Shown here piece after piece: positions 26,188 to 37,320 of a stretch of 64,000 bases of DNA; the stretch's first letter is position 1, and every line of letters starts with the position of its first letter. The position numbers and the translations under genes were made by a program. The DNA is taken from contig DAIDJN010000041.1 in the NCBI GenBank assembly GCA_027451365.1, positions 109,367 through 173,366 of the forward strand, in the 5' to 3' direction. Under the pieces are notes generated by a model, which did not search any database, had not been told where the DNA came from, and saw nothing but the letters and a program-made list of their open reading frames with translations. The DNA is from Phycisphaerales bacterium. GTDB taxonomy: Bacteria > Planctomycetota > Phycisphaerae > WQYP01.

Positions 26188-26898
26188 TTATGGGCGCGGT
26201 GGATTGGATTTAATCTTATTCGTATCAAGTGTGACCGCGCCATGCCGGGCCAGGGCGCCGCCATCCTGAATTGACGCACTGTTCATTATGATAATATCCG
26301 TGGTGGCAAGAATGGTGCCTTCAAATGCGCTGTCCGCCCCAAGGGTGGCCGAACTTCCCACCTGCCAGAACACAAAATTCCTTGGCTCAGATCCATTGCC
26401 ACGGTTAATGGAAATAACGGCTGATTTGGTGCCGGTGGTCAGAGTTGTCCCGATCTGAAATACAAACTGGGCTTTTTTATTGCCTTGGCAGTCAAGTGTG
26501 AGTATCCCGTTGAGAGTTGCCAACGACGAAAAATAATATACCCCGGGCAGCAGCGTTAACCCGCCCAGGTCCTGGCCGCTTAAATCGTGGGTCGGTTTCA
26601 TCCCCTGAACCGCTTTGTAAGCGGCGGTAAGATCAATATGCGCTTTGCGGGCGACATCATCGGCCATTCGCTTGGCATGGGGCGATAAGACAATACCCGG
26701 CGGGAAGCCGGTGATATCCTCGCTGTGACTGGTTCCCACATGGCCTCCATGCACCGCGGTATCGCCGGTATTCGTGACCGCGGTACCGCCCAACACCGCA
26801 AAATTGGCGGCGGAATCTAAAATAAATTGAACCGGCGCGTGCAGCGGAAGCGTGCCCAACGGTGCAACCACCAGCATAACAAGTGTTTTATTTACCAT
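26188..26898 (-). CDS. DUF3494 ice-binding-like protein, no C-terminal anchor
   Basis: NFAVLGGTAVTNTG, ITGFPPG, DLGGLTLLPGVYYFSS, FVFQIGTTLTT, VFWQVGSSATLG, GALARHGAVTLDTN; AAGGAG RBS before ATG 26898. Confidence 0.88.
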   Translation of the reverse strand: MVNKTLVMLVVAPLGTLPLHAPVQFILDSAANFAVLGGTAVTNTGDTAVHGGHVGTSHSEDITGFPPGIVLSPHAKRMADDVARKAHIDLTAAYKAVQGMKPTHDLSGQDLGGLTLLPGVYYFSSLATLNGILTLDCQGNKKAQFVFQIGTTLTTGTKSAVISINRGNGSEPRNFVFWQVGSSATLGADSAFEGTILATTDIIIMNSASIQDGGALARHGAVTLDTNKIKSNPPRP

Positions 26899-27109
26899 GG
26901 CCAATTCTCCTTTTTCACACACCGCCGCGTGGGGATGTGCGAATATGGCGCGACTGATCTTCGGTTGGGCATCGTGGAGAACGAGCTAAAGGAAAGCTGG
27001 ATTCCGGGTGGGCGTCGGGGCGACTCATGCCAAGGTTTCTAAACCAACCCGCGCGAGCCGTGCGACTTCAAGCGGCCATGCTCTAGCACACTTGAATTAT
27101 CAGTATAGC

Positions 27110-27125
27110 AGCAATTGGCGTACCG
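27110..27125 (-). promoter_or_regulatory. Putative sigma54 (-24/-12) promoter of the DUF3494 gene 26188..26898
   Basis: Minus strand CGGTACGCCAATTGCT = GG-N10-GC with TTGCT. Confidence 0.55.
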
Positions 27126-27290
27126 TGGTGGATTTGGTTAATTATTTTTAAAGATAGGCGGGCGGCTATCACACAGCCGGACACATAAACCGGTCAATAT
27201 CAGGAAAGTCCGGATATACCTGACTTTAGTTTCTGCAAAGCCGGGGTGCTTATTGTCCGGGAATCGTCAATTTTGCCCAATTCATTCGAA

Positions 27291-28109
27291 TTATGTCCGG
27301 CGGCTGCGCCAGCGTGTCGTAAGTGTGTAAATTCCCACCAGGCCCGCCCCGGCCAACACAAGTGTTGCTGTGGCTGGCTGGCCAACTGCCGCCGGCCCGG
27401 TATTGATATTGCTGCTGGCGCAGTTACTGATGGTGTTGGCATCCAGTGTTACCGCGCCATTGCGTGCCAGAGCGCTGCCGTCGGTAATTGTGGCACCAGT
27501 ATTCAACGTAATGCTGGTTAGCGCAAGAATATGTCCTTCAAATGCGGTTCCTGTGCCCAGCGTGGCGGAACTACCCACCTGCCAGAACACATTGCAATCT
27601 GGTGTTGAACCGGAATTCAGAACCACAACCGAAGCGTTGCTGGCCGTGGTCAGCGTGCTGCCTATCTGAAAAACAAACTGCGCGGCCGAATTGCCCTGGT
27701 CATTAAGCGTCAGTGTTCCAGTAAGGCCCGCAGACGAAGAGAAAAAGTAGGTGCCCGCCGTTAGTGTTAATCCGCCCAGGTTCGTTCCTGTCAGATTCTG
27801 CGTGGGGGCTAAACCTGCGCATGCATTGTAGGCCGTTGTTAAATCACTCTGAGCCTGACTGGCGACTGCATTGGCGGAGTCCAGTGTGTATGGAGATGTC
27901 ACACTTCCCGGCGGAAAGCCGGTAATCGCCGTGCCCGGACTTACTCCCACATTTCCCCCATCTATAACCGTGTTACCTGTATTGGTCACGGTTGATCCGG
28001 CCAATACCGCGAAATTTCCCGCCGTGCCCAGCACCACGGCGGCTGGTACCGCCGCCGGGGAAACTGTTAATATCACCAACGCGGAAAAAATGATAGTCTT
28101 GGTAAACAT
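27291..28109 (-). CDS. DUF3494 ice-binding-like protein with PEP-CTERM-like C-terminal anchor
   Basis: LGTAGNFAVLAGSTVTNTG, VGVSPGTAITGFPPG, FVFQIGSTLTTAS, NVFWQVGSSATLG, ALARNGAVTLDAN; tail VGQPATATLVLAGAGLVGIYTLTTRWRSRR; GGAGG RBS before ATG 28109. Confidence 0.92.
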   Translation of the reverse strand: MFTKTIIFSALVILTVSPAAVPAAVVLGTAGNFAVLAGSTVTNTGNTVIDGGNVGVSPGTAITGFPPGSVTSPYTLDSANAVASQAQSDLTTAYNACAGLAPTQNLTGTNLGGLTLTAGTYFFSSSAGLTGTLTLNDQGNSAAQFVFQIGSTLTTASNASVVVLNSGSTPDCNVFWQVGSSATLGTGTAFEGHILALTSITLNTGATITDGSALARNGAVTLDANTISNCASSNINTGPAAVGQPATATLVLAGAGLVGIYTLTTRWRSRRT

Positions 28110-28268
28110 TGGTCGCCTCCATTTACTTTTGTCGCCGGGTGGCGATACCAAAAGGTCGCATTTAAATAAAAAGCTGGAAGCCCTATAATTAGCCCGCCCC
28201 GCTTTTATATGTCCCAGCCATCCCGTTGAGATTGCCGAAATGATGACTAATCTCGATTACTATGTGTA

Positions 28269-28284
28269 TGCAAACCATGTGCCG
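28269..28284 (-). promoter_or_regulatory. Putative sigma54 promoter of the anchored DUF3494 gene
   Basis: Minus strand CGGCACATGGTTTGCA matches YGGCAC-N5-TTGCW. Confidence 0.75.
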
Positions 28285-28399
28285 TGTTGGGTAAATCATT
28301 AAGTTGACTGAATTCATAAAAGTTCTTGCGATCTTGGGGCTGCTTGCCGAGATTCAGTTACAGATGCGACGCAGAGGGGGCGGCAATAACGCCGCCGCC

Positions 28400-28426
28400 G
28401 GACATAATGTCGCGGACATTTTGTCC
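28400..28426. promoter_or_regulatory. Candidate sigma54-activator enhancer site, copy 1
   Basis: GGACATAATGTCGCGGACATTTTGTCC: two G(A/C)CA-N3-TG(T/G)C palindromes 14 bp apart, about 115 bp upstream of the -24 box; shares 18 identical bp with 29512..29529. Confidence 0.6.
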
Positions 28427-28668
28427 CAGTCGGTTGGCGAATTGCGTAAACAGGCAGAAAATTGCTGGCCAAATAATATTATTGCCAAAGGTATGGATAT
28501 TGCATGGTAGTACGTGGGGTTGTTCACGATTTTATTAATTGCGTCCCATTTTTTACCTGCGCAGAGCGTTCGGGTTGGGCGTCAGCCGCGTTCGCCAAGT
28601 CTCATTGGCTTGCTTGTAGGTGCAAAAAGACAAGATTGACCGCGGCTCGGTTGGCCAAAAAAGGGACA

Positions 28669-28700
28669 GGGACGTTCCGCCCTTTCGGTCGGAACGTCCC
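28669..28700 (-). terminator. Hairpin downstream of CDS 28765..29187; possible intrinsic terminator or REP-like palindrome
   Basis: GGGACGTTCCG / CGGAACGTCCC 11-bp perfect stem; T-run follows on the minus strand after 6 nt. Confidence 0.45.
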
Positions 28701-28764
28701 CGTTTACACCTGTGCCCCACTCGTGCTGCCCCACTGGCATTTGCCGCCCCACACCACGGACACT

Positions 28765-29187
28765 TTACCACTTTTTTAACAGGTATCTACGATCTATGCG
28801 ATTCCAGGAATCGCGCACGGCCTGTCTGGCCGTATCCCAGTTTAATGTGGATTTACCCCTATGTGCCGCCCAGTCCCGTATCAAAATCAGTTCAACTTCC
28901 GCGAATAGGCGGGGATCATAAAACACCCGCGCTTCCCAGCCATATTGGTAGGCCGGGGCGTATTCTTCGTACGACACACCGGCCCTGACGTATGGACGTG
29001 AGTAATATGTCGACCGCCAGAACCCATGTTCTACGACCGGGTCAAGTTCATTTATCGGGTCTTCGTTCATCTGGTCACCGCCTCGGTTTGGATGTTGCGC
29101 CTCGTCGGTTGTCTTAGGTACTGATAGCGGATCGGCTGAACTGAATTTCGGAATGGCTCTCTCAAAATTGACATCATGCAGCGTCAT
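28765..29187 (-). CDS. Conserved hypothetical protein of the PYV..G..YEEYAPAY.YGWE..F.EVE..L.RDW...RG.S.L.W..AR.A.RDSW type (start 29187 or 29070)
   Basis: Recognisable widespread motif pattern in the C-terminal 100 aa; RBS-like sequences before both ATGs. Confidence 0.7.
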   Translation of the reverse strand: MTLHDVNFERAIPKFSSADPLSVPKTTDEAQHPNRGGDQMNEDPINELDPVVEHGFWRSTYYSRPYVRAGVSYEEYAPAYQYGWEARVFYDPRLFAEVELILIRDWAAHRGKSTLNWDTARQAVRDSWNRIDRRYLLKKW

Positions 29188-29299
29188 GGTTCGACTTCTC
29201 CAATCATTCCTGCGGCATATCCATTGGCTGCCCGCCTAGTGCAGCAACACAGAATTCACTGAAGAAATTTCGGGAAACTTCCTCATGCCGGTTGTTGTA

Positions 29300-29315
29300 T
29301 GCAATTGGTGTGCCG
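29300..29315 (-). promoter_or_regulatory. Putative sigma54 promoter of CDS 28765..29187
   Basis: Minus strand CGGCACACCAATTGCA matches YGGCAC-N5-TTGCW. Confidence 0.75.
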
Positions 29316-29505
29316 CTTTTCAAATCAAGTGCGTACCAAGGCCAATTTTCATGGCATGCTGGCGGCGCGAAATGGCTCATGTGGTGCATAAATCTGGCCG
29401 CAAACGATCGCATGGCATATTTATGCCCGATTGTGCCGTTGGGCAGTTCGCCTGTAGCAGATCACATGCTGCCGTTGCCTGTCAGCCCGTTCTGACCGAA
29501 CAACT

Positions 29506-29532
29506 CGCCAAAATGTCGCGGACATTTTGGCA
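29506..29532. promoter_or_regulatory. Candidate enhancer site, copy 2, between divergent sigma54 promoters
   Basis: CGCCAAAATGTCGCGGACATTTTGGCA; 11-bp inverted arms GCCAAAATGTC/GACATTTTGGC. Confidence 0.6.
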
Positions 29533-29603
29533 TTGCCGGCGCGTTTTGGATTAAGAAAGCCGAAAAATGGCCTGTTTGGCTGATAAACAGGCCATTTTCC
29601 CGT

Positions 29604-29657
29604 CGGCATTGCAATTGCAATAACAATAGTGCGCCTGCAGGTGGCAGGTATGTTGCC
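29604..29657 (+). promoter_or_regulatory. Putative sigma54 promoter(s) of the GGDEF gene
   Basis: Two GG-N10-GC boxes: CGGCATTGCAATTGCA (29604..29619) and TGGCAGGTATGTTGCC (29642..29657). Confidence 0.6.
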
Positions 29658-29722
29658 TTGCTTTGCGCTGGGGCGCGGAAGGCCATGCTGGCATTTGTCG
29701 AATGACTTATCGGGGATTCAAT

Positions 29723-30628
29723 ATGCCTGAACCAATGCGGCAATCGGAAAGCGGGTCGGCCGTCCCGGCTATTTTATCTCCGACTGGTGATCACGCCGTG
29801 AAAACGCTTGAATCGCTGCACCGGTATATGTTGCTTGTCGCACAACATCTGGAGGAAAATGTGCACCGCATATCCATGCCGGCCCGCGGCCGGGAAGGGC
29901 CGCCTTTCGGCGAGACGCTGGACCGCATTATCCGCAAATGTGTTCATGACCTGCAATCCCTGACGCATTCCATGGCGGGAGAACTCGCGCAACGCGCGGC
30001 TCTTGAACAGCAGTTGCTGGCCACCCAGACCGTTGCCGAGCAATATCGGCAGATGGCCTTTCATGATCCGGTGACCGCGTTGCCCAACCGCATTCTGCTG
30101 CACGACCGGCTGGATATCGCCCTGGCCCAGGCCAGGCGACATAAACGTTCGTTTGCGGTTCTATTTATAGACATTGATAAATTCAAATATATAAATGATA
30201 CGTTCGGACATGCCGCCGGCGATACCATTCTGCGGCTGATTGCCGACAAGCTGCGGGGCTGTATGCGAACCGAGGACACCGTAAGCCGCGCCGGCGGGGA
30301 TGAATTTCTCTGCCTCCTGATGGAAGTCAAAAACCAAGACGCGGTAAAATCTGTCGCCGAGTGCATGTTCGCCCAAATCGCCCAGGCTGCGGGTACCGTT
30401 GGCTTTAATATCGCGGTGAAACTCAGTGTTGGCTGTGCCATGTGCCCGCTGGATGGCGTAACCCCCGAAATCCTTTTGCGAAACGCCGACAAGGCCATGT
30501 ACCGCGCTAAGAGGGCCGGGACAGGCCTGGCCTTTTGTGATGACCATGCCGCGGATATTGATAACACATGGAAGGACAACTCCATCTCTTCGTCAGCCAT
30601 GAGAATGCCCACAAGTTATCGCTGTTGA
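29723..30628 (+). CDS. Diguanylate cyclase (GGDEF) with N-terminal coiled coil
   Basis: AFHDPVTALPNR, FIDIDKFKYINDTFGHAAGD, RTED I-site five residues before GGDEF, ADKAMYRAK. Confidence 0.93.
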   Translation: MPEPMRQSESGSAVPAILSPTGDHAVKTLESLHRYMLLVAQHLEENVHRISMPARGREGPPFGETLDRIIRKCVHDLQSLTHSMAGELAQRAALEQQLLATQTVAEQYRQMAFHDPVTALPNRILLHDRLDIALAQARRHKRSFAVLFIDIDKFKYINDTFGHAAGDTILRLIADKLRGCMRTEDTVSRAGGDEFLCLLMEVKNQDAVKSVAECMFAQIAQAAGTVGFNIAVKLSVGCAMCPLDGVTPEILLRNADKAMYRAKRAGTGLAFCDDHAADIDNTWKDNSISSSAMRMPTSYRC

Positions 30629-30650
30629 AAAGCCGGGGCGCCCAAACTGC

Positions 30651-31802
30651 GGTCCTTAAACTGATGTGCGTAAGCTGACGTGCATAAACTGGGGGTCGGG
30701 CGTCTCGCCCGATATCGCAATTGAATAAGGAGACCTTAATTTGAGGTCCTTAAACTGATATGTTTAAACTGATATGTTTAAACTGATGTGTTGAAGCTGA
30801 TGTGCTTAAGCTGGGGGTCGGGCGTCTCGCCCGACATGTCATCCCCACCGGCGGCCAGGATGGCCGCCCCCCACGAAGACTGTTTACAATCCGCAAGCAA
30901 ATGGCGACAAGGCGCGCCACCAGATCGCCCTCACCCACGCCAAGATTTACCTCTCGCCCGATATCGCAATTGAATAATGAGACGTTAATTTGAGGACCTT
31001 AAACTGATGTGCCTAAGCGGATGTGTTTAAGCTGATGTTCTTAAGCTGATGTGTTTAAGCGGATGTGTTTAAATTGGGGGTCGTGCGTCTCGCCCGACAC
31101 GTCATCCTCACCGGCGGCCAGGATGGCCGCCCCCCACGAAGACTGTTTACAATCCGCAAGCAAATGGCGACAAGTCGCGCCACCAGATCGCCCTCACCCA
31201 CGCCAAGATGAAGTCTCGCCCGATATCGCAATTGAATAAGGAGACGTTAATTTGAGGTCCTTAAACTGATATGTCTAAACTGATGTGCGTAAACTGATAT
31301 GCTTAAACTGATGTGTTTAATCTGGGGGTCGGGCGTCTCGCCCGACACGTCATCCCCACCGGCGGCCAGGATGGCCGCCCCCCAGGAAGACTGTTTACAA
31401 TCCGCAAGCAAATGGCGACAAGTCGCGCCACCAGATCGACCTCACCCACGCCAAGATGTACATCTCGTCCGATATCGCAATTGAATAATGAGACGTTAAT
31501 TTGAGGTCCTTAAACTGATGTGCCTAAGCGGATGTGTTTAAGCTGATGTTCTTAAGCTGATGTGTTTAAGCTGATGTGCTTAAGCTGGGGGTCGGGCGTC
31601 TCGCCCGACATGTCATCCCCACCGGCGGCCAGGATGGCCGCCCCCCAGGAAGACTGTTTACAATCCGCAAGCAAATGGCGACAAGTCGCGCCACCAGATC
31701 GCCCTCACCCACGCCAAGATGGACACCTCGCCCGACATGTCATCCCCACCGGCGGCCAGGATGGCCGCCCCCCACGAAGACTGTTTACAATCCGCAAGCA
31801 AA
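30651..31802. repeat. Nested tandem repeat array: about 4 full 249/262-bp units plus partial flanking units, each with a REP-like hairpin pair and 4-5 copies of a 14-bp repeat
   Basis: 14-mer runs start at 30751, 31000, 31262 and 31511 (spacings 249/262/249); 14-mer consensus TAA(A/G)CTGAT(G/A)TG(T/C)(T/C); hairpins GTCGGGCG-TCT-CGCCCGAC and GGCGGCCA-GGA-TGGCCGCC. Confidence 0.95.
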
Positions 31803-31833
31803 GCGCGATAAAAAGCGTCATCGCGTCGCAAGT

Positions 31834-31860
31834 CGCCACTTTGACCCGGCCATTATGGCC
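31834..31860. promoter_or_regulatory. Candidate enhancer site, copy 3
   Basis: CGCCACTTTGACCCGGCCATTATGGCC: same 13+1+13 double-palindrome layout, 60 bp upstream of the -24 box at 31920. Confidence 0.5.
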
Positions 31861-31919
31861 CGGCCGTCAGGCGCGGCCCGCCGCTTAACAAAAAACGCCG
31901 CTTTGGCCCAAAAAATATG

Positions 31920-31935
31920 TGGCACATGAATTGCT
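31920..31935 (+). promoter_or_regulatory. Putative sigma54 promoter of the DUF3309 gene
   Basis: TGGCACATGAATTGCT, matches TGGCAC-N5-TTGCW consensus. Confidence 0.85.
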
Positions 31936-31998
31936 TAATATACTGGCGTGGTTTTAAATTGACCACGGGTGGGGAACAAAACTGAAAGGCGTGTACTC

Positions 31999-32163
31999 AT
32001 GGGTTTGATTTTGCTTGTTGTATTGGTCCTGATCATGCTTAGTGTGCTTCCCACGTGGGGTTACAGTCGTCAATGGGGTTATGGCCCGACTGGTGGTCTG
32101 GGTGTCATTCTTCTAATCGTCATTGTGCTGGTATTAATGGGTGTTATTCCCGGTAGATTTTAA
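31999..32163 (+). CDS. DUF3309 small membrane protein
   Basis: ILLVVLVLIMLSVLPTWGYSRQWGYGPTGGLGVILLIVIVLVLMG, the characteristic LPTW.YSR.WGYGP.GGLG motif. Confidence 0.9.
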   Translation: MGLILLVVLVLIMLSVLPTWGYSRQWGYGPTGGLGVILLIVIVLVLMGVIPGRF

Positions 32164-32436
32164 ATATCATCGCGCGTCGCCTTCAAGAAATAGCCGTATT
32201 TAGTGTCGGAACGCATTAAAAAGCGCGGAGTGTGGAACAAAATATTCCCGAGGTTTCTCTCATGCGGGCGGGCGGTGCACCCCGCGCACATGGGCTGGAT
32301 GTCGGCGAATTTCCCGGAAAATTGCCCGGTTTCAATTGGTCTGTCCAATAACGGGCGAATTTTCCAAAGTGGTTTGATGTGCGTGGCCTTCAGATTAATC
32401 TGACCTGCCGCGATATCAAATAGTATTTAAGGAGAC

Positions 32437-33231
32437 ATGAAAATGTTTCGTAAAAACATCACAACGTGGTTGTCCGCCGGAGCTGTCGCTTCGCTGGCCT
32501 TATCCGGCGCCGTTTCCGCGGTGCAGGCTCAGCCGGTTATTGAGTACAGCCTGAACAATGGCGCCACCTTCACCAGTCTGGCTAATCCCAGCGCCATCAA
32601 CACCATCGTGGATGGTTCGATCGGCGCATTTACCGTCACCAGTCTTTCGGCCCTGGCGGTGAACAACAGCAGTCTTGCTAATTTGAATCTCGGAATGGCC
32701 AGCATCAGTTTTGCCGCCACTCCTGGTTCAACCGTCAGCAATGTCAATATTCTGTTCCAGGCCAGCGCTACCGGATTCACTTATGATCCCGTCGGCGTGA
32801 ATTTCCTGGAATCAGCGGGTTCGGCCACCCTGCTTCATGTGGCGTCATCCACTGGCGATTCCCTTTCACTTAAGGGTGGGTCGGACACGGGTAATAATCT
32901 CTTTACCTTCACCACCACATCCAACCCGGTCGGGAGTCCGTTTGTATTCGCTGGTTCCACCTCTTCAGGAACCGAAAGTTCCAGTTTTGGAATTGACCCT
33001 GTGCCGAATCCAAGCATTAATTCCACGGGCTATTCGCTGACCACCACATTGGATTTTACCAGCTTTTACGTGGGTGATATTTATAACAATCCGTCATCCA
33101 CAGTCACCGTCTCCAATACCGAGCCGCTTTCGGCAGGCGCCGCGCCACTGCCCGCGACCGGTCTTCTGACCCTGGTGGGGGGAATCGCCATGATTGGCGG
33201 AGTGGCGATCCGTCGCCGCCTGAAGGTCTAA
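32437..33231 (+). CDS. Secreted Ser/Thr-rich surface protein with APLPA C-terminal sorting signal
   Basis: AAGGAG RBS; signal peptide ending VQA; tail APLPATGLLTLVGGIAMIGGVAIRRRLKV. Confidence 0.85.
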   Translation: MKMFRKNITTWLSAGAVASLALSGAVSAVQAQPVIEYSLNNGATFTSLANPSAINTIVDGSIGAFTVTSLSALAVNNSSLANLNLGMASISFAATPGSTVSNVNILFQASATGFTYDPVGVNFLESAGSATLLHVASSTGDSLSLKGGSDTGNNLFTFTTTSNPVGSPFVFAGSTSSGTESSSFGIDPVPNPSINSTGYSLTTTLDFTSFYVGDIYNNPSSTVTVSNTEPLSAGAAPLPATGLLTLVGGIAMIGGVAIRRRLKV

Positions 33232-33268
33232 GCCTCTTAGGCCCTGTTAAACAAACTGTCTCTTCCCC

Positions 33269-33307
33269 AAGGCGGGGTGGCCACTGTGGGGCTCCCCGCC
33301 TTTTTTT
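33269..33307 (+). terminator. Rho-independent terminator after 32437..33231
   Basis: GGCGGGG...CCCCGCC stem followed by T7. Confidence 0.8.
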
Positions 33308-33475
33308 CGCGCCGATAAAGCACTGCGCACTCTTGGTTCAGGAATCCCGGCTGAACGTCCGCAAAAATTGCGCCCCGCCAATAGCCGCCCGCAAACCGCC
33401 AACCCCATTCCAGGCTCAATTATGCAGACTGGCGTAAATTAAGGGTGGCCCGCGCGAAAAACGGCTCATGCGCAA

Positions 33476-33590
33476 ACCGGGTGTCGGGCGTCTGGCCCGA
33501 CGAATTGTTCCCACCGGCGGCCAGGATGGCCGCTCCCGTCAAGACTGTTTACAACCCGCAAGCAAATAATGACAAGACGCGCCACCAGCT
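33476..33590. repeat. Diverged solo copy of the array unit core (REP-like pair and downstream segment)
   Basis: GTCGGGCGTCTGGCCCGAC..CCACCGGCGGCCAGGATGGCCGC..AAGACTGTTTACAACCCGCAAGCAAAT..GACAAGACGCGCCACCAG; a further decayed copy follows at about 33657-33705. Confidence 0.85.
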
Positions 33591-33780
33591 CAACAGCGTT
33601 CACACATTAACCTACGCCTTCCCCGACGGTTGCAATTCAATTGGCCAGGCATCAACTCCGGCGGCTACGAATGGCCGCCCGTCAAGAATATTTGCCGTCA
33701 GCAAGTGGTTTGTGATATGACACGTCTGGTGATCAAACCCAGTGCGCTTTGCCATGAAATTGTTCAGTCAATAAGTCCGG

Positions 33781-35292
33781 TTATGCGGGGGAATGCGGCG
33801 TTCGGGAATCTGCGGCGGTGGCACGGTTTATATCCGTGCGAAGCAGCACCAACGAAGGTGTTTCCTGGCGTCCCAGCTTGCGCTGCAACGTTCGCACGCT
33901 GATGCCAATTGCGTGGGCCGCGCGCGTTTTATTATTGTGGTGCCGCTGCATGGCCGCTTGTATGGCCAATTGTTCAAGTTGCGCCAGTGTCAGAAGTGGC
34001 TCATCTTCGTTCGTGGAAATATAACTGGAAATTATCGTCGGCGGGACAACCGGTGCAAGGCCCCGCTGTGTCGGGGCTATCGCCAGCGCCCCGGATGCGT
34101 CTTGTATGGCCGGCGGCAGGTCCTTCAGACTGATGACCGTATTGTCGCGGTCTGACAGCACCATTGCGCGCTCTATCACGTTCAGCAGTTCTCTTACGTT
34201 TCCGGGCCAGTGATAGCGTTGCAGGGCCTCCATCGCCGGGATGGAGATGGAATCAATCGGTGTGGCGATATTCCGCAGATTCACATGCTCAATAAAATAG
34301 CGCACCAGCAGTGGTATATCATCAAGGCGAGCCCGCAGGGGCGGTACACGGATGGTGATGATGTTCAGGCGATAATATAAATCTTCACGAAATAAGCCTT
34401 CCCGTACCATATTTGGCAAATCTCGGCTCGTGGCCGCAATCACGCGCGTATTTACCTTGATCTCGCGATGGCCGCCCAGCGGGGTGACAATTCTATTTTC
34501 CAGAATTCGCAGAAGCTTCGCCTGAAGAGACAATGCGCAATCGCCAATCTCATCAATAAAAAGTGTGCCGCCGCTGGCCGCCTCAAACCGCCCGATTCGC
34601 GAACCGACCGATCCGGAAAAGGCCCCCTTGTCGTATCCGAATAATTCACTTTCCACCAGCGTTTCCGGCATGGCCGCACAGTTTAAAGCAATAAACGGTC
34701 CCGTTTTTCTCTGCGAATTCCGGTGAATGGCCTGCGCCACCAGGTCCTTACCTGTGCCCGATTCGCCAAGAATAAGGACTGTGCTGAACGCCCGTGAAGA
34801 CCGGGCAATCAAATCAAAAACATCCCGCATGAGCTGGGATTGACCAATGATATGGTCATTGACACCATCGCCAATTTCCGGCGTGGGGGGCTTCTGTTCG
34901 TTCTGGCACGCATGAATCAGGTCCATCAGGCGGGACAGCATCAGCTTTGCATCGGTTACATTTTGCAGATCATCAAATGTGCCCGTGTTAATGGTTTCAA
35001 TCAGGGATTTCACGGATTCGGTTTCATGAATAACCGGCAAAGGTGTGTTCGGAAAATAATTTCGCCAGTGCTTAATCAGGTCCAGACGCGATATGTCTCC
35101 GGATATAACCCCAGCCACAACGCAATCAATGCCCTCGCCCACAAAACTCAGCGCCTTTTCCGCGGAATCCGTGGTTTTGACAACATAACCCGCGTTGGTC
35201 AGCAACTGTTCCAGCGCGGCACGCTGGCTCGGATTGTCTTCAATCACCAGTATTTCATATTGATCAGTTTGATCACTTTTTTGAGAAGTCAT
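33781..35292 (-). CDS. Sigma54-dependent enhancer-binding activator (NtrC-like) with atypical receiver domain
   Basis: GESGTGKD, ESELFGYDKGAFSGS, TLFIDEI, FREDLYYRL, WPGNVREL; Fis-type HTH NKTRAAHAIGISVRTLQRKL; N-terminal receiver-like YEILVIEDN. Confidence 0.93.
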   Translation of the reverse strand: MTSQKSDQTDQYEILVIEDNPSQRAALEQLLTNAGYVVKTTDSAEKALSFVGEGIDCVVAGVISGDISRLDLIKHWRNYFPNTPLPVIHETESVKSLIETINTGTFDDLQNVTDAKLMLSRLMDLIHACQNEQKPPTPEIGDGVNDHIIGQSQLMRDVFDLIARSSRAFSTVLILGESGTGKDLVAQAIHRNSQRKTGPFIALNCAAMPETLVESELFGYDKGAFSGSVGSRIGRFEAASGGTLFIDEIGDCALSLQAKLLRILENRIVTPLGGHREIKVNTRVIAATSRDLPNMVREGLFREDLYYRLNIITIRVPPLRARLDDIPLLVRYFIEHVNLRNIATPIDSISIPAMEALQRYHWPGNVRELLNVIERAMVLSDRDNTVISLKDLPPAIQDASGALAIAPTQRGLAPVVPPTIISSYISTNEDEPLLTLAQLEQLAIQAAMQRHHNNKTRAAHAIGISVRTLQRKLGRQETPSLVLLRTDINRATAADSRTPHSPA

Positions 35293-35818
35293 TCCAATGG
35301 CTCCAAATCCGGACGCCAGCGCCCACTTATTTCCTGGGAGTCGGCCAACTGTGCCCCCCCATCGCAGAATTTGCCACCTGCCAGCCTGTTCTTAACCACA
35401 ACTAAGGATAGCGGTATGCGCCTGGTAAAGCAAACCAAAATCGGGCCAGTCCCATGCCGCTGCCGCGCGACCGCGGCCGCCAATGCGCATGACCTTGCGA
35501 GCCAAGCCAATCCCGTCCGCTCTGTCGTGCCCGATTCCCCTTCGTTGCTGACCGGGTCTGGTAAAGAAATTGTCGCCGTCCTGGCCGCCGGGCAGAAGGC
35601 ACGCGCATATGCAACTCACGCCGATGCGCTGGGCATGTTATTTGGCGAGGGGGCTTGAATCCGGCCTGGGGGAGGGTGGAGCGGAATCTGTGGTGCAGGA
35701 TTGACAGGATTGCCACGATAGCGTGAAGGCGGCCCATGTCCGACGGAAAAGGAATGCCCATGTTTAGGAACGCTTCAGCAAATGCGACCCCTGTTTTCGG
35801 CCCCTGGCCCGACCACCT

Positions 35819-36430
35819 TTAAATGCCTATGCCGACGACCACCATCGGTACCGCCGGACTGCTTCTCCCCTGACGAATAAGATCGTAAAGGCCGCCTTCG
35901 TAATATCCGACGCCCGAGGACATCTGTGATTGAAAGTGTTTTATTGGAAGTATTTCGATGCCTACATCAATGACGTCGCCCACGAAAAAAGCCATATGCT
36001 TTACAAACATGTCGTAAGCCACAAAAGAATATTTGCCAAATTGTATTTCCAGGGCGATGCGATCCTTCACGAAATCGGTCTGATTGTAGGATTTAATAGG
36101 TGTTTTGCTGGCCTTCTCGATCTCGTGTTTTTGCTGATCCGGCTGTAAAGTCAACGTCCGGCGAATAAGCTGATGATCAGATGTGACCCAATAATAAGTG
36201 CGGGATTCCTTCCAGCCAAGCGGGCCGAGTGCTCTTGTAAAAGCGCTGTTCATGGCGACGGGGCTGTAAAGCGTTCGCCCTCTCATGGTTTTCTCACGGG
36301 AGATTTTCGTACGGCATTTCTCGGCGTCAATACCTTCGATGACCTCTTCAACTTCTTTCCACAATTCCGGTTTGTGAACCAAGATATGTTCATGACCGTT
36401 AAGATGCGAATAAAGCGCGTGAATCTTCAC
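35819..36430 (-). CDS. Type II restriction endonuclease, BglII/BstYI family
   Basis: KISREKT..G..LYSP..MN, NQTDFVKDRIALEIQFGKYSFVAYD, DVGIEILP; GTGA overlap with the methylase stop. Confidence 0.85.
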   Translation of the reverse strand: MKIHALYSHLNGHEHILVHKPELWKEVEEVIEGIDAEKCRTKISREKTMRGRTLYSPVAMNSAFTRALGPLGWKESRTYYWVTSDHQLIRRTLTLQPDQQKHEIEKASKTPIKSYNQTDFVKDRIALEIQFGKYSFVAYDMFVKHMAFFVGDVIDVGIEILPIKHFQSQMSSGVGYYEGGLYDLIRQGRSSPAVPMVVVGIGI

Positions 36431-37320
36431 GATTGGCCCCCGCTGGGCAAGGTGGGGTCGTAAATCGGCCTGTCCATCGGACGAGTTTTAAGCAGACCGG
36501 CACGCAGAGACTCAACGCGGTTCTGGGCAATTTGAACATAACGCGGATCAATATCGCACCCCACGCCATCGCGGCCGTTTTTAATTGCCGCTATTACGCT
36601 GGTTCCCGCGCCCATATAAGGGTCGAAGACCGTTTGGCCCGCCCTGGTCATGGAAAGCACCAATCGTTCCACCAGTTCAACCGGAAATTGGCACGGGTGT
36701 GCGGTTTTTTCCACATGGTTTGCCTTTACATTTGGTATCAACCACACATCTCCCGGATTTTTACCCAACGGATTGCAGGAGAACTGCCCGGCCCGCGGAC
36801 CTTTGAAATATTTCTTTCCCGGATATTTCGACGGTACCCGAATCGGATCCAGATCGAATACATAATCATCCGATTTGGTGAACCACAGGATCACTTCGTA
36901 GCGTCCGGAAAATCGCTTGGTGCAATGCAATCCGTGCGCAAAATGCCAGACAATGCGATTTCGCAGCATCAGGCCATGTTTTTTGAAAATTGGGTATAGC
37001 ACAACGTCCAGCGGAACAACTTCGCGTTCCAGACTGATGTGATTGCCGACCTGCCAGCAAATTGAGCCATTCGGACGCAGGAGGCGAACGCATTCCGCGA
37101 TAACTTGTTCCTGCGATTGAATATAGCCGCCCAGACTGTTGCGCCGCTCATATTCTTTGCCAATATTATACGGTGGTGAGGTAATGATTAACTGTGCCAG
37201 GGCATCGGGCAGAGTCGCCATAAATTTAAGGTTATCCTGACAGGCGATGGTTGCGTCGCCTAATTTCAGGGAATCGGCGGAGGGGTTATGGTCGTACGAA
37301 GAGAAGAGTGTAGGCGTCAT
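36427..37320 (-). CDS. Site-specific DNA methyltransferase (N4-C/N6-A, beta class)
   Basis: ITSPPYNIGK before HPCQFP and DPYMGAGTS (catalytic motif precedes SAM motif). Confidence 0.92.
   Translation of the reverse strand: MTPTLFSSYDHNPSADSLKLGDATIACQDNLKFMATLPDALAQLIITSPPYNIGKEYERRNSLGGYIQSQEQVIAECVRLLRPNGSICWQVGNHISLEREVVPLDVVLYPIFKKHGLMLRNRIVWHFAHGLHCTKRFSGRYEVILWFTKSDDYVFDLDPIRVPSKYPGKKYFKGPRAGQFSCNPLGKNPGDVWLIPNVKANHVEKTAHPCQFPVELVERLVLSMTRAGQTVFDPYMGAGTSVIAAIKNGRDGVGCDIDPRYVQIAQNRVESLRAGLLKTRPMDRPIYDPTLPSGGQS

Follow-up and report, generated by a model that had tools for sequence, protein, structure and literature searches.

A predicted sigma-54 general-stress regulon in a Phycisphaerales bacterium, probably served by an adjacent activator that lacks the receiver phosphorylation site

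Sigma-54 promoters are opened by bacterial enhancer-binding proteins (bEBPs), which bind enhancer sites upstream of the promoter, assemble into rings, reach the polymerase through looping of the DNA and drive promoter opening with ATP. The closest solved structure to the bEBP studied here is NtrC1 (E 9.5e-80; PDB 1NY5/4L4U), in which the receiver is unphosphorylated and helix alpha-5 and the linker form one long helix in the inactive dimer (PMC4878744). We analysed a 64,000-nucleotide stretch of DNA, the window, on contig DAIDJN010000041.1 (C41) of a Phycisphaerales genome (G000; 4.06 Mb, 93% complete), where a block of genes at 26188-35292 ends in a bEBP with the domain order of NtrC1 and other group I receiver–AAA+–helix-turn-helix (HTH) proteins, and with their Walker A/B motifs, arginine finger, sensor II and Fis-type HTH. 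As in NtrC1-type systems, tandem upstream sites accompany -24/-12 boxes. Unlike NtrC1, this activator lacks the phospho-Asp, Thr and Lys of the receiver, has its linker replaced, carries a GAFSGS loop, has no kinase gene nearby and has two new invariant cysteines. We consider it fairly probable that the block is the core of a sigma-54 general-stress regulon whose tandem sites are likely bound by the adjacent activator; with its phosphorylation site lost, the activator would depend on some switch other than a kinase.

FleQ of Pseudomonas and FlrA of Vibrio are also sigma-54 activators with an unphosphorylatable receiver-like domain and, as here, a regulon linked to cyclic di-GMP (c-di-GMP); unlike them, the present activator does not keep residues R185, E330 and R334 and has no flagellar targets, and its phosphorylatable ancestor is still visible in sister genomes. 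The target types are those of the sigma-B, RpoS and EcfG regulons: DUF892/YciE ferritin-like, bacterioferritin-like and DUF2383 proteins and small membrane proteins are typical general-stress targets. Those regulons, however, rely on a stress sigma factor of the sigma-70 family that is controlled by partner switching with an anti-sigma factor, as compared to sigma-54 and one bEBP here. CsbD is a further EcfG target (PMC7083833). The PrsK-PrsR-PrsT system (PMC1569441) shares with the block a sigma-54 box, an activator site ~60-90 bp upstream and one target with a PEP-CTERM-like tail, but the site is different, PrsK and PrsT are missing, the activator falls under the PrsR cut-off and nearly all PEP-CTERM-like genes are boxless. 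DUF3494 (PF11999) proteins include the PEP-CTERM-tailed nIBP of Nostoc HG1 and a planctomycete relative (PMC7783341), and an anchored form is therefore known; unlike the Nostoc protein, the ice-binding-like protein of the block has a predicted sigma-54 stress promoter and occurs together with a second copy that has no anchor. Sigma-54 boxes have been described at chaperone and stress genes of planctomycetes (PMC12316311), the available text of that article not describing the present regulon, and the available text of a Desulfovibrio sigma-54 paper (PMC4641369) gave no match to GACA/TGTC, figure motifs being outside the search. The component parts of the system are of known kinds. What appears to be new is the operator, the target set under sigma-54 and the pairing of intact and Asp-less activator forms, none of which was found in the available text of the literature searched (including PMC2754498), supplements aside; a 2004 Pirellula activator study could hold a related site.

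Genes (3271 in G000) were called with a rough hexamer-based script of our own. The scoring matrix for sigma-54 boxes is an approximation to the consensus TGGCACG-N4-TTGCW, the score thresholds being working values. The initial annotation had listed six GG-N10-GC 16-mers before five consecutive genes of the block. All six were found, intergenic, sense-oriented and 64-230 nt before a gene start:

27110-27125, minus strand: sigma-54 box of DUF3494 gene 1, score 14.5
28269-28284, minus strand: sigma-54 box of DUF3494 gene 2, score 16.7
29300-29315, minus strand: sigma-54 box of the hypothetical gene, score 16.7
29604-29619, plus strand: sigma-54 box of the diguanylate cyclase gene (preferred), score 14.0
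29642-29657, plus strand: sigma-54 box of the diguanylate cyclase gene (weaker second candidate), score 12.6
31920-31935, plus strand: sigma-54 box of the DUF3309 gene, score 18.6

These boxes are genuine predicted sigma-54 promoters. A genome-wide matrix scan makes the block the densest sigma-54 box cluster of G000 and places its box density above background: five boxes scoring at least 14 lie within 5 kb (Poisson expectation for any 5-kb window, 3e-4), as compared to two in the next-best 5-kb stretch. With an intergenic sense box of at least 14 before 25 of the 3271 genes, the chance-expected number of runs of five is 9e-8. Sigma-54 promoters are a real class in this genome, since intergenic boxes of this strength far more often face into a gene (25) than away from one (2). 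Other boxes precede rpoN, dnaK, groEL and nitrogen-uptake genes, names that were assigned by reading the sequences. The absence of sigma-54 itself, which would have spoken against the promoters, is ruled out by the single rpoN gene (TIGR02395, 370 bits, above the cut-off), which lies outside the block; five sigma-54 activators are encoded. The matrix scan found no box before the PEP-CTERM-like gene at 32437-33231 or before the activator gene. The RNA runs from the same study are mine-drainage metatranscriptomes; no run was listed as containing the stretch, and three metatranscriptome contig sets yielded just five short partial pieces, which speak neither for nor against expression.

A shared upstream motif that had been reported to occur three times, without being named, fits three tandem arrays of GACA-W3-TGTC at 28401-28425, 29507-29531 and 31835-31859 (a first reading as TGTC-N3-GACA was dropped in favour of this one). 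The element and its variants form tandem arrays with spacings of 14 and 18 bp, and these lie 65-210 bp upstream of the boxes:

27247-27276, no strand: two weak enhancer-like sites of DUF3494 gene 1, scores 7 and 4, below the level of the other promoters
28383-28425, no strand: predicted enhancer array of DUF3494 gene 2, one weak site (28383-28393) and two strong ones (28401-28411 and 28415-28425) at 18 and 14 bp spacing
29507-29531, no strand: predicted common enhancer of the hypothetical and cyclase promoters, which are divergent; two sites at 14 bp spacing
31835-31859, no strand: predicted enhancer of DUF3309, two sites 14 bp apart, just beyond a 263-bp repeat array

Relative to the preferred 29604 box, the cyclase sites are at -78/-92, close to the -71/-85 of relatives, where the divergent arrangement around the 29507-29531 site is the same. 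The motif, first recognised in the window, was then tested elsewhere. Of 37 boxes in relatives' loci (three near-duplicate loci dropped), 20 are accompanied by a site with at most one mismatch (mean 0.39 and maximum 3 in 300 shuffles), and a matrix built from these relatives' sites alone was applied to the 78 intergenic boxes of G000. Among the 78, the window promoters rank 1-4 and 6, a DUF3309 paralogue on contig C16 takes rank 5, and the first DUF3494 promoter comes fourteenth. In loci fetched after the matrix had been made, a site scoring at least 10 is present at 32/39 boxes, as compared to 3/44 other G000 boxes. With a stricter box score, the site is found at 31/36 boxes near activator orthologues versus 1/39 near 160 unrelated bEBP loci, this negative control coming from partial collection scans with the activator that returned generic bEBPs of 33-47% identity. 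Neighbouring sites are 14 bp apart in 20 and 18 bp apart in 16 of 45 pairs, frequently as three sites spanning 32 bp, an array that would suit three dimers in one ring.

Beyond the close relatives, the exact site-plus-box pattern was found in 4 of 401 genomes of the phylum (one for a reversed control), and since the downstream genes are unrelated we claim no phylum-wide regulon. Within the order of genome G029 the pattern occurs in 7/121 genomes (control 0), at eight loci: two before DUF2383, one beside an orthologous activator, two before dnaK and three before other genes. These two dnaK promoters match the tandem site; separately, the strong boxes before rpoN, dnaK and groEL in G000 (C42:56366, C11:3759 and C35:29023) have no clear tandem site. 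A motif scan of the block showed no IHF consensus, and there were no Rfam matches. The 263-bp repeat array was also considered as the enhancer and discarded, since it does not include the sites and since the distribution of its core, a dispersed repeat, does not follow that of the activator. The array is modular, with ~4 tandem copies and nested 14-bp units (30644-31830, with a further stretch at 33469-33594). Its GC-rich hairpin core resembles a repetitive extragenic palindrome (REP), with 26 matches in G000, and is found in 16/45 family genomes; the inverted activator gene has a partial copy of the 263-bp repeat at its 3' end.

The sigma-54 activator at the end of the block had been proposed as its regulator, and the co-occurrence of orthologues, sites and targets in relatives supports this as the likely case. 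The close homologues of the activator carry the source label Phycisphaerae, and orthologues are found in 28 of 45 family genomes, all with a common recognition helix. Of the 15 orthologues with an intact receiver, seven are immediately preceded by a sigma-54 box, and these boxes carry the tandem site; among orthologue-adjacent promoters outside the matrix training, 6/7 score at least 10, one of them, beside an orthologue in another order, being perfect. We compared 32 genomes (eight genera) defined by the lack of the small partner gene described below, a grouping not made by species tree. DUF3494 is encoded in 16/16 of these genomes with the activator and 2/16 without (Fisher p 5e-7, overstated by kinship). 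The exact pattern of site plus box occurs in 12/16 genomes with the activator and 3/16 without it (reversed control, 0). We conclude that the adjacent bEBP, without kinase signalling of the usual kind, likely turns on a set of genes predicted to protect against stress.

A different assignment is that promoters and sites are real but served by another activator, for instance the intact-receiver paralogue on contig C34 (C34:19788), which has a similar helix (ISVRTLYRKM) and the canonical GAFTGA, the adjacent gene, with its non-canonical loop, being a passenger, a repressor or a decaying copy. However, when five genomes without activator, DUF3494 and pattern were examined, this paralogue was present in four of them; the targets track the adjacent activator, the motor and HTH of which are under purifying selection, and the intact orthologues carry the site at their own gene. 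We regard service by another activator as unlikely.

The activator itself is as follows:

33781-35292, minus strand: sigma-54 enhancer-binding protein with an Asp-less pseudo-receiver, an AAA+ domain with a GAFSGS loop and a Fis-type HTH

Its Walker A/B motifs, arginine finger, sensor II and HTH are all intact. The N-terminal domain is recognised as a receiver (PF00072, 34.3 bits versus a cut-off of 30.2; all atlas matches are receivers), and with G61, H89 and N111 at the positions of the phospho-Asp, beta-4 Thr and beta-5 Lys it agrees with the definition of a pseudo-receiver as a domain recognised as a receiver that lacks the conserved active-site residues (PMC12632262). The phospho-Asp is replaced by Gly, His or Gln in 15/15 rows of the Asp-less clade, which have also lost Thr and Lys, as compared to 14/14 intact orthologues that keep all three; judged by these residues, the usual phosphorylation of the receiver is not possible. 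In a tree of 21 rows the Asp-less ones group as a single clade, supported at 100/100 (locus L007 and an RtcR-like paralogue left out; deeper forks weak), and the loss of Asp is taken as derived because the outgroups keep it. In place of the NtrC1-type coiled-coil linker there is a stretch with proline and with little conservation (identity 0.36 versus 0.68). Cys129, Cys252 and Asp183 are invariant in 30/30 Asp-less sequences and absent from 14/14 intact ones, the copy of genome G013 not being in these alignments. Residues 12-82 of the pseudo-receiver are under no less constraint than the motor, with a ratio of non-synonymous to synonymous change (pN/pS) of 0.11-0.22 compared with 0.19-0.29, synonymous sites being near saturation. 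Two AlphaFold2 models form beta1-beta3 only, with a predicted local distance difference test (pLDDT) score below 50 over most of residues 60-143. The sigma-54 contact loop reads GAFSGS instead of GAFTGA. Serine at position 4 or 6 occurs singly in the validated activators BkdR and PrpR (PMC3162934), and a Desulfovibrio GAFSGA regulator is listed under general stress (PMC4641369). Another G000 activator (C16:34387-35835) has GAFTDA in this loop, and two to four Asp-less activator copies are present in each of the genomes G053, G060, G059 and G006.

What these changes do to the control of the protein can be read in more than one way. The regulon and activator could be the same but default-on, the inhibitory NtrC1-type coiled coil having been lost, so that the genes would be constant or would follow the levels of activator and sigma-54. 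NtrC1 is held inactive by its receiver and long linker helix (PMC4878744) and the linker is replaced here, the G013 copy does without much of its receiver, and relatives have a strong, consensus-like sigma-70 promoter for the activator. The strong purifying selection seen in the pseudo-receiver's N-terminal half and the newly fixed cysteines nevertheless suggest a retained role, and an ungated activator would make the enhancer layer pointless. We take a default-on activator to be a serious possibility, although short of an even one. A second option is a biofilm circuit like that of FleQ, in which c-di-GMP made by the cyclase binds the activator and controls surface adhesins. FleQ likewise has a pseudo-receiver (PMC12632262), a cyclase with an intact active site belongs to the regulon and to most relatives' cassettes, and one DUF3494 protein has a surface anchor; however, the c-di-GMP residues R185, E330 and R334 (PMC10723142) align to Q187, Y332 and H336, and ferritin-like targets point to stress protection, which leaves such a circuit decidedly improbable.

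Intact-receiver orthologues are preceded, in 13/45 genomes, by a gene for a 73-aa protein with an invariant His. A search with one query found no such gene in the other 32 genomes, which include all those with the Asp-less activator. The partner family (L012:10341-10562 and orthologues; 156 homologues, unannotated) has an H-box-like motif with its His invariant in 28/28. Likeness to HisKA is below the cut-off (PF00512, best E 1.4e-4; best PDB kinase match, E 0.88), and the protein is a possible free DHp-type phosphotransfer protein. A predicted complex of the partner with the intact receiver scored 0.40 as compared to 0.00 for the best control (pLDDT at least 83, contact agreement at least 84%); of 157 solved complexes, 18 gave a pass of this kind, as did both of the passing mismatches. 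The model thus lends the pairing weak support, which may reflect likeness to solved kinase–receiver pairs. Upstream of the Asp-less activator genes, a sigma-70-like element stands in place of the sigma-54 box:

35405-35433, minus strand: predicted sigma-70-like promoter of the activator gene, TTGCTT-17-TATCCT

The pattern TTGCTT-17-TAnnnT is present at 14/20 Asp-less loci, 0/15 intact loci and 235/3202 other genes. Its -35-like TTGC falls at about the position expected for the -12 TTGC of the ancestral sigma-54 box (window 35405-35433; locus L015), and in G013 a weak sigma-54 box (10.2) still overlaps the -35-like element. In-place conversion of a sigma-54 promoter into a sigma-70-like one is speculative.

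The gene families named in the initial annotation (PF11999 twice, GGDEF, DUF3309, and Sigma54_activat with HTH_8) were all matched. The target genes and the gene that follows them are:

26188-26898, minus strand: DUF3494 ice-binding-like protein 1, PF11999 E 1.8e-50, no C-terminal anchor, weakest regulon member
27291-28109, minus strand: DUF3494 ice-binding-like protein 2 with a PEP-CTERM-like C-terminal anchor, PF11999 E 6.6e-58, best PDB match 6EIO (E 8.7e-46)
28765-29070, minus strand (start 29070 or 29187): conserved hypothetical protein, no Pfam match, atlas clusters unnamed
29723-30628, plus strand: diguanylate cyclase, PF00990 E 2.8e-45, RTED-x5-GGDEF, with GGDEF motif and RxxD I-site intact
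31999-32163, plus strand: DUF3309 small membrane protein, PF11752 E 1.4e-19
32437-33231, plus strand: secreted protein with a PEP-CTERM-like tail, TIGR02595 13.2 bits versus a cut-off of 16, no box of its own

Orthologues of DUF3494 gene 1 adjoin the activator in relatives. Its unanchored product has a short conserved N-terminus (KTxVLLVVPP-like), unlike a normal signal peptide, and may stay inside the cell. The tail of DUF3494 protein 2 is under the MYXO-CTERM cut-off. The 28765-29070 protein is the C-terminal part of a 180-aa glycine-zipper protein of relatives' cassettes and of contig C62, and its atlas record starts at residue 40. Membership of the 32437-33231 gene in the regulon is uncertain. 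The same box and site precede a DUF3309–lipoprotein–YciE (DUF892) operon on C16, with weaker candidates on C82 and C54; together with the location of rpoN, this means that the block is not the self-contained island it had been taken for. The proposal of a coordinated programme of surface adhesion or general stress holds in part: a sigma-54 programme is conserved as a cassette in relatives, and general stress is a better fit than adhesion, since in relatives this promoter type also stands upstream of ferritin-like DUF892, bacterioferritin-like and DUF2383 genes.

Control of PEP-CTERM surface proteins by a PrsK/PrsR-type system would be another way to account for sigma-54 promoters in a genome with two exosortases and about 75 PEP-CTERM-like genes, and an analogy with PrsR had been drawn. 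Only 2/78 regex-defined PEP-CTERM-like candidates have a sigma-54 box, however; the PrsR motif ends in TTTACA and, in the available text, is confined to Proteobacteria (PMC1569441). With a score of 299.7, the activator is well under the PrsR (TIGR02915) cut-off of 502.6, and neither PrsK nor PrsT was found above cut-off in this 93% complete genome. The analogy therefore fails, and we consider such control very improbable indeed.

One or more of the cassette families (DUF3494, glycine-zipper protein, cyclase, DUF3309, lipoprotein, YciE and bacterioferritin-like) are found at 15/22 loci near Asp-less activators, and at least four of them at 10/22; among 15 intact-receiver loci, one has YciE and one DUF3309. 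In G000 the cassette is split over contigs, and the activator is inverted as compared to most relatives. In the same-genus genome G001 there is no activator, no DUF3309 and no DUF3494, and recN is followed by different genes; across six genera the activator is patchy (1/2, 3/5, 7/10, 3/6, 1/3 and 1/2 genomes). With no integrase among the called genes and a block GC content of 53% versus 55%, we speak of a cassette of patchy distribution and do not regard it as a proven mobile island. L077 of G060 and L078 of G046, two genomes from different genera, hold near-identical cassettes, which reflect recent transfer or a binning error. Directly flanking the block is a BglII-like endonuclease with an N4/N6 methylase (35819-37320; 50% GC), and at 1687-2428 there is a probable toxin–antitoxin pair (Doc/Fic-like and AbrB-like, by eye) with a sigma-54-like box (14.5) upstream.

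Several observations weigh against a gated stress activator acting through these sites. The genomes compared are kin, so that co-occurrence statistics are overstated, and many of the held-out promoters are orthologous, with L077/L078 near-duplicates, so that site counts overstate independence; DUF3494 gene 1 has only its two weak sites. Genomes G045, G007 and G024, all fragmented assemblies, have the site-plus-box pattern with no activator detected. In five intact-receiver genomes, relaxed patterns gave only four matches, one of them inside a gene, and two DUF3309 boxes have no site; the ancestral regulon is accordingly poorly mapped. The active examples known for the loop are of the single Ser changes, not of the double change GAFSGS, and Ser at loop position 6 is found only in G000 among the 15 Asp-less rows, yet 2/3 close homologues share it. 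The two cysteines could be plain hydrophobic substitutions, and the Asp-less copy of G013, in addition to its receiver deletion, has Phe at 252. Losses of Asp and of the partner gene are probably one event. As for the activator's promoter, the -35 hexamer TTGCTT was picked after viewing the alignment, a rough genome-wide check saw no TTGC enrichment, and a stock promoter scan did not list the element. Finally, the 'general stress' label rests on gene families.

With these points considered, we still favour control of the block by its adjacent activator, and suggest the following mechanism. The activator would be made from a housekeeping-type promoter; two or three dimers would load onto the tandem sites and assemble into a ring, which would loop to the sigma-54 polymerase and drive ATP-dependent opening of the DUF3494, glycine-zipper, cyclase and DUF3309 promoters and, elsewhere, those of YciE genes. 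The least certain step is the gate: ring assembly may be controlled by a non-phosphoryl signal through the conserved pseudo-receiver, a proposal that we see as evenly balanced, an inactive activator being unlikely. A thiol or redox signal is the best guess at its nature and carries about half that weight; redox-switched pseudo-receivers with cysteines exist in other regulators (PMC12632262, PMC4395418). The ancestor would have been a phosphorylatable, sigma-54-autoregulated activator with a small His-containing partner, and the Asp-less form and its targets would move together, genomes acquiring or losing the whole cassette at once. It is a tempting but rather doubtful extension that a Phycisphaerae lineage rewired its sigma-54 general stress response in one step, from a sigma-54-autoregulated activator under a phosphorelay, with a free His-phosphotransfer partner, to a housekeeping-expressed, thiol/redox-gated pseudo-receiver activator that kept the same operator and moves with its targets.

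The switching of bacterial pseudo-receivers is an open question according to a 2025 review (PMC12632262). As the DNA-binding helix and the operator are common to intact and Asp-less orthologues, both forms could be compared on the same reporter, with defined differences to swap between them: the Asp, the linker, the two cysteines, the partner gene and the promoter. For this uncultured planctomycete lineage, the analysis predicts an operator, an activator and a list of targets through which stress could be controlled, none of which we found in the literature searched, and it suggests that sigma-54 can carry a gene set of the general-stress type.

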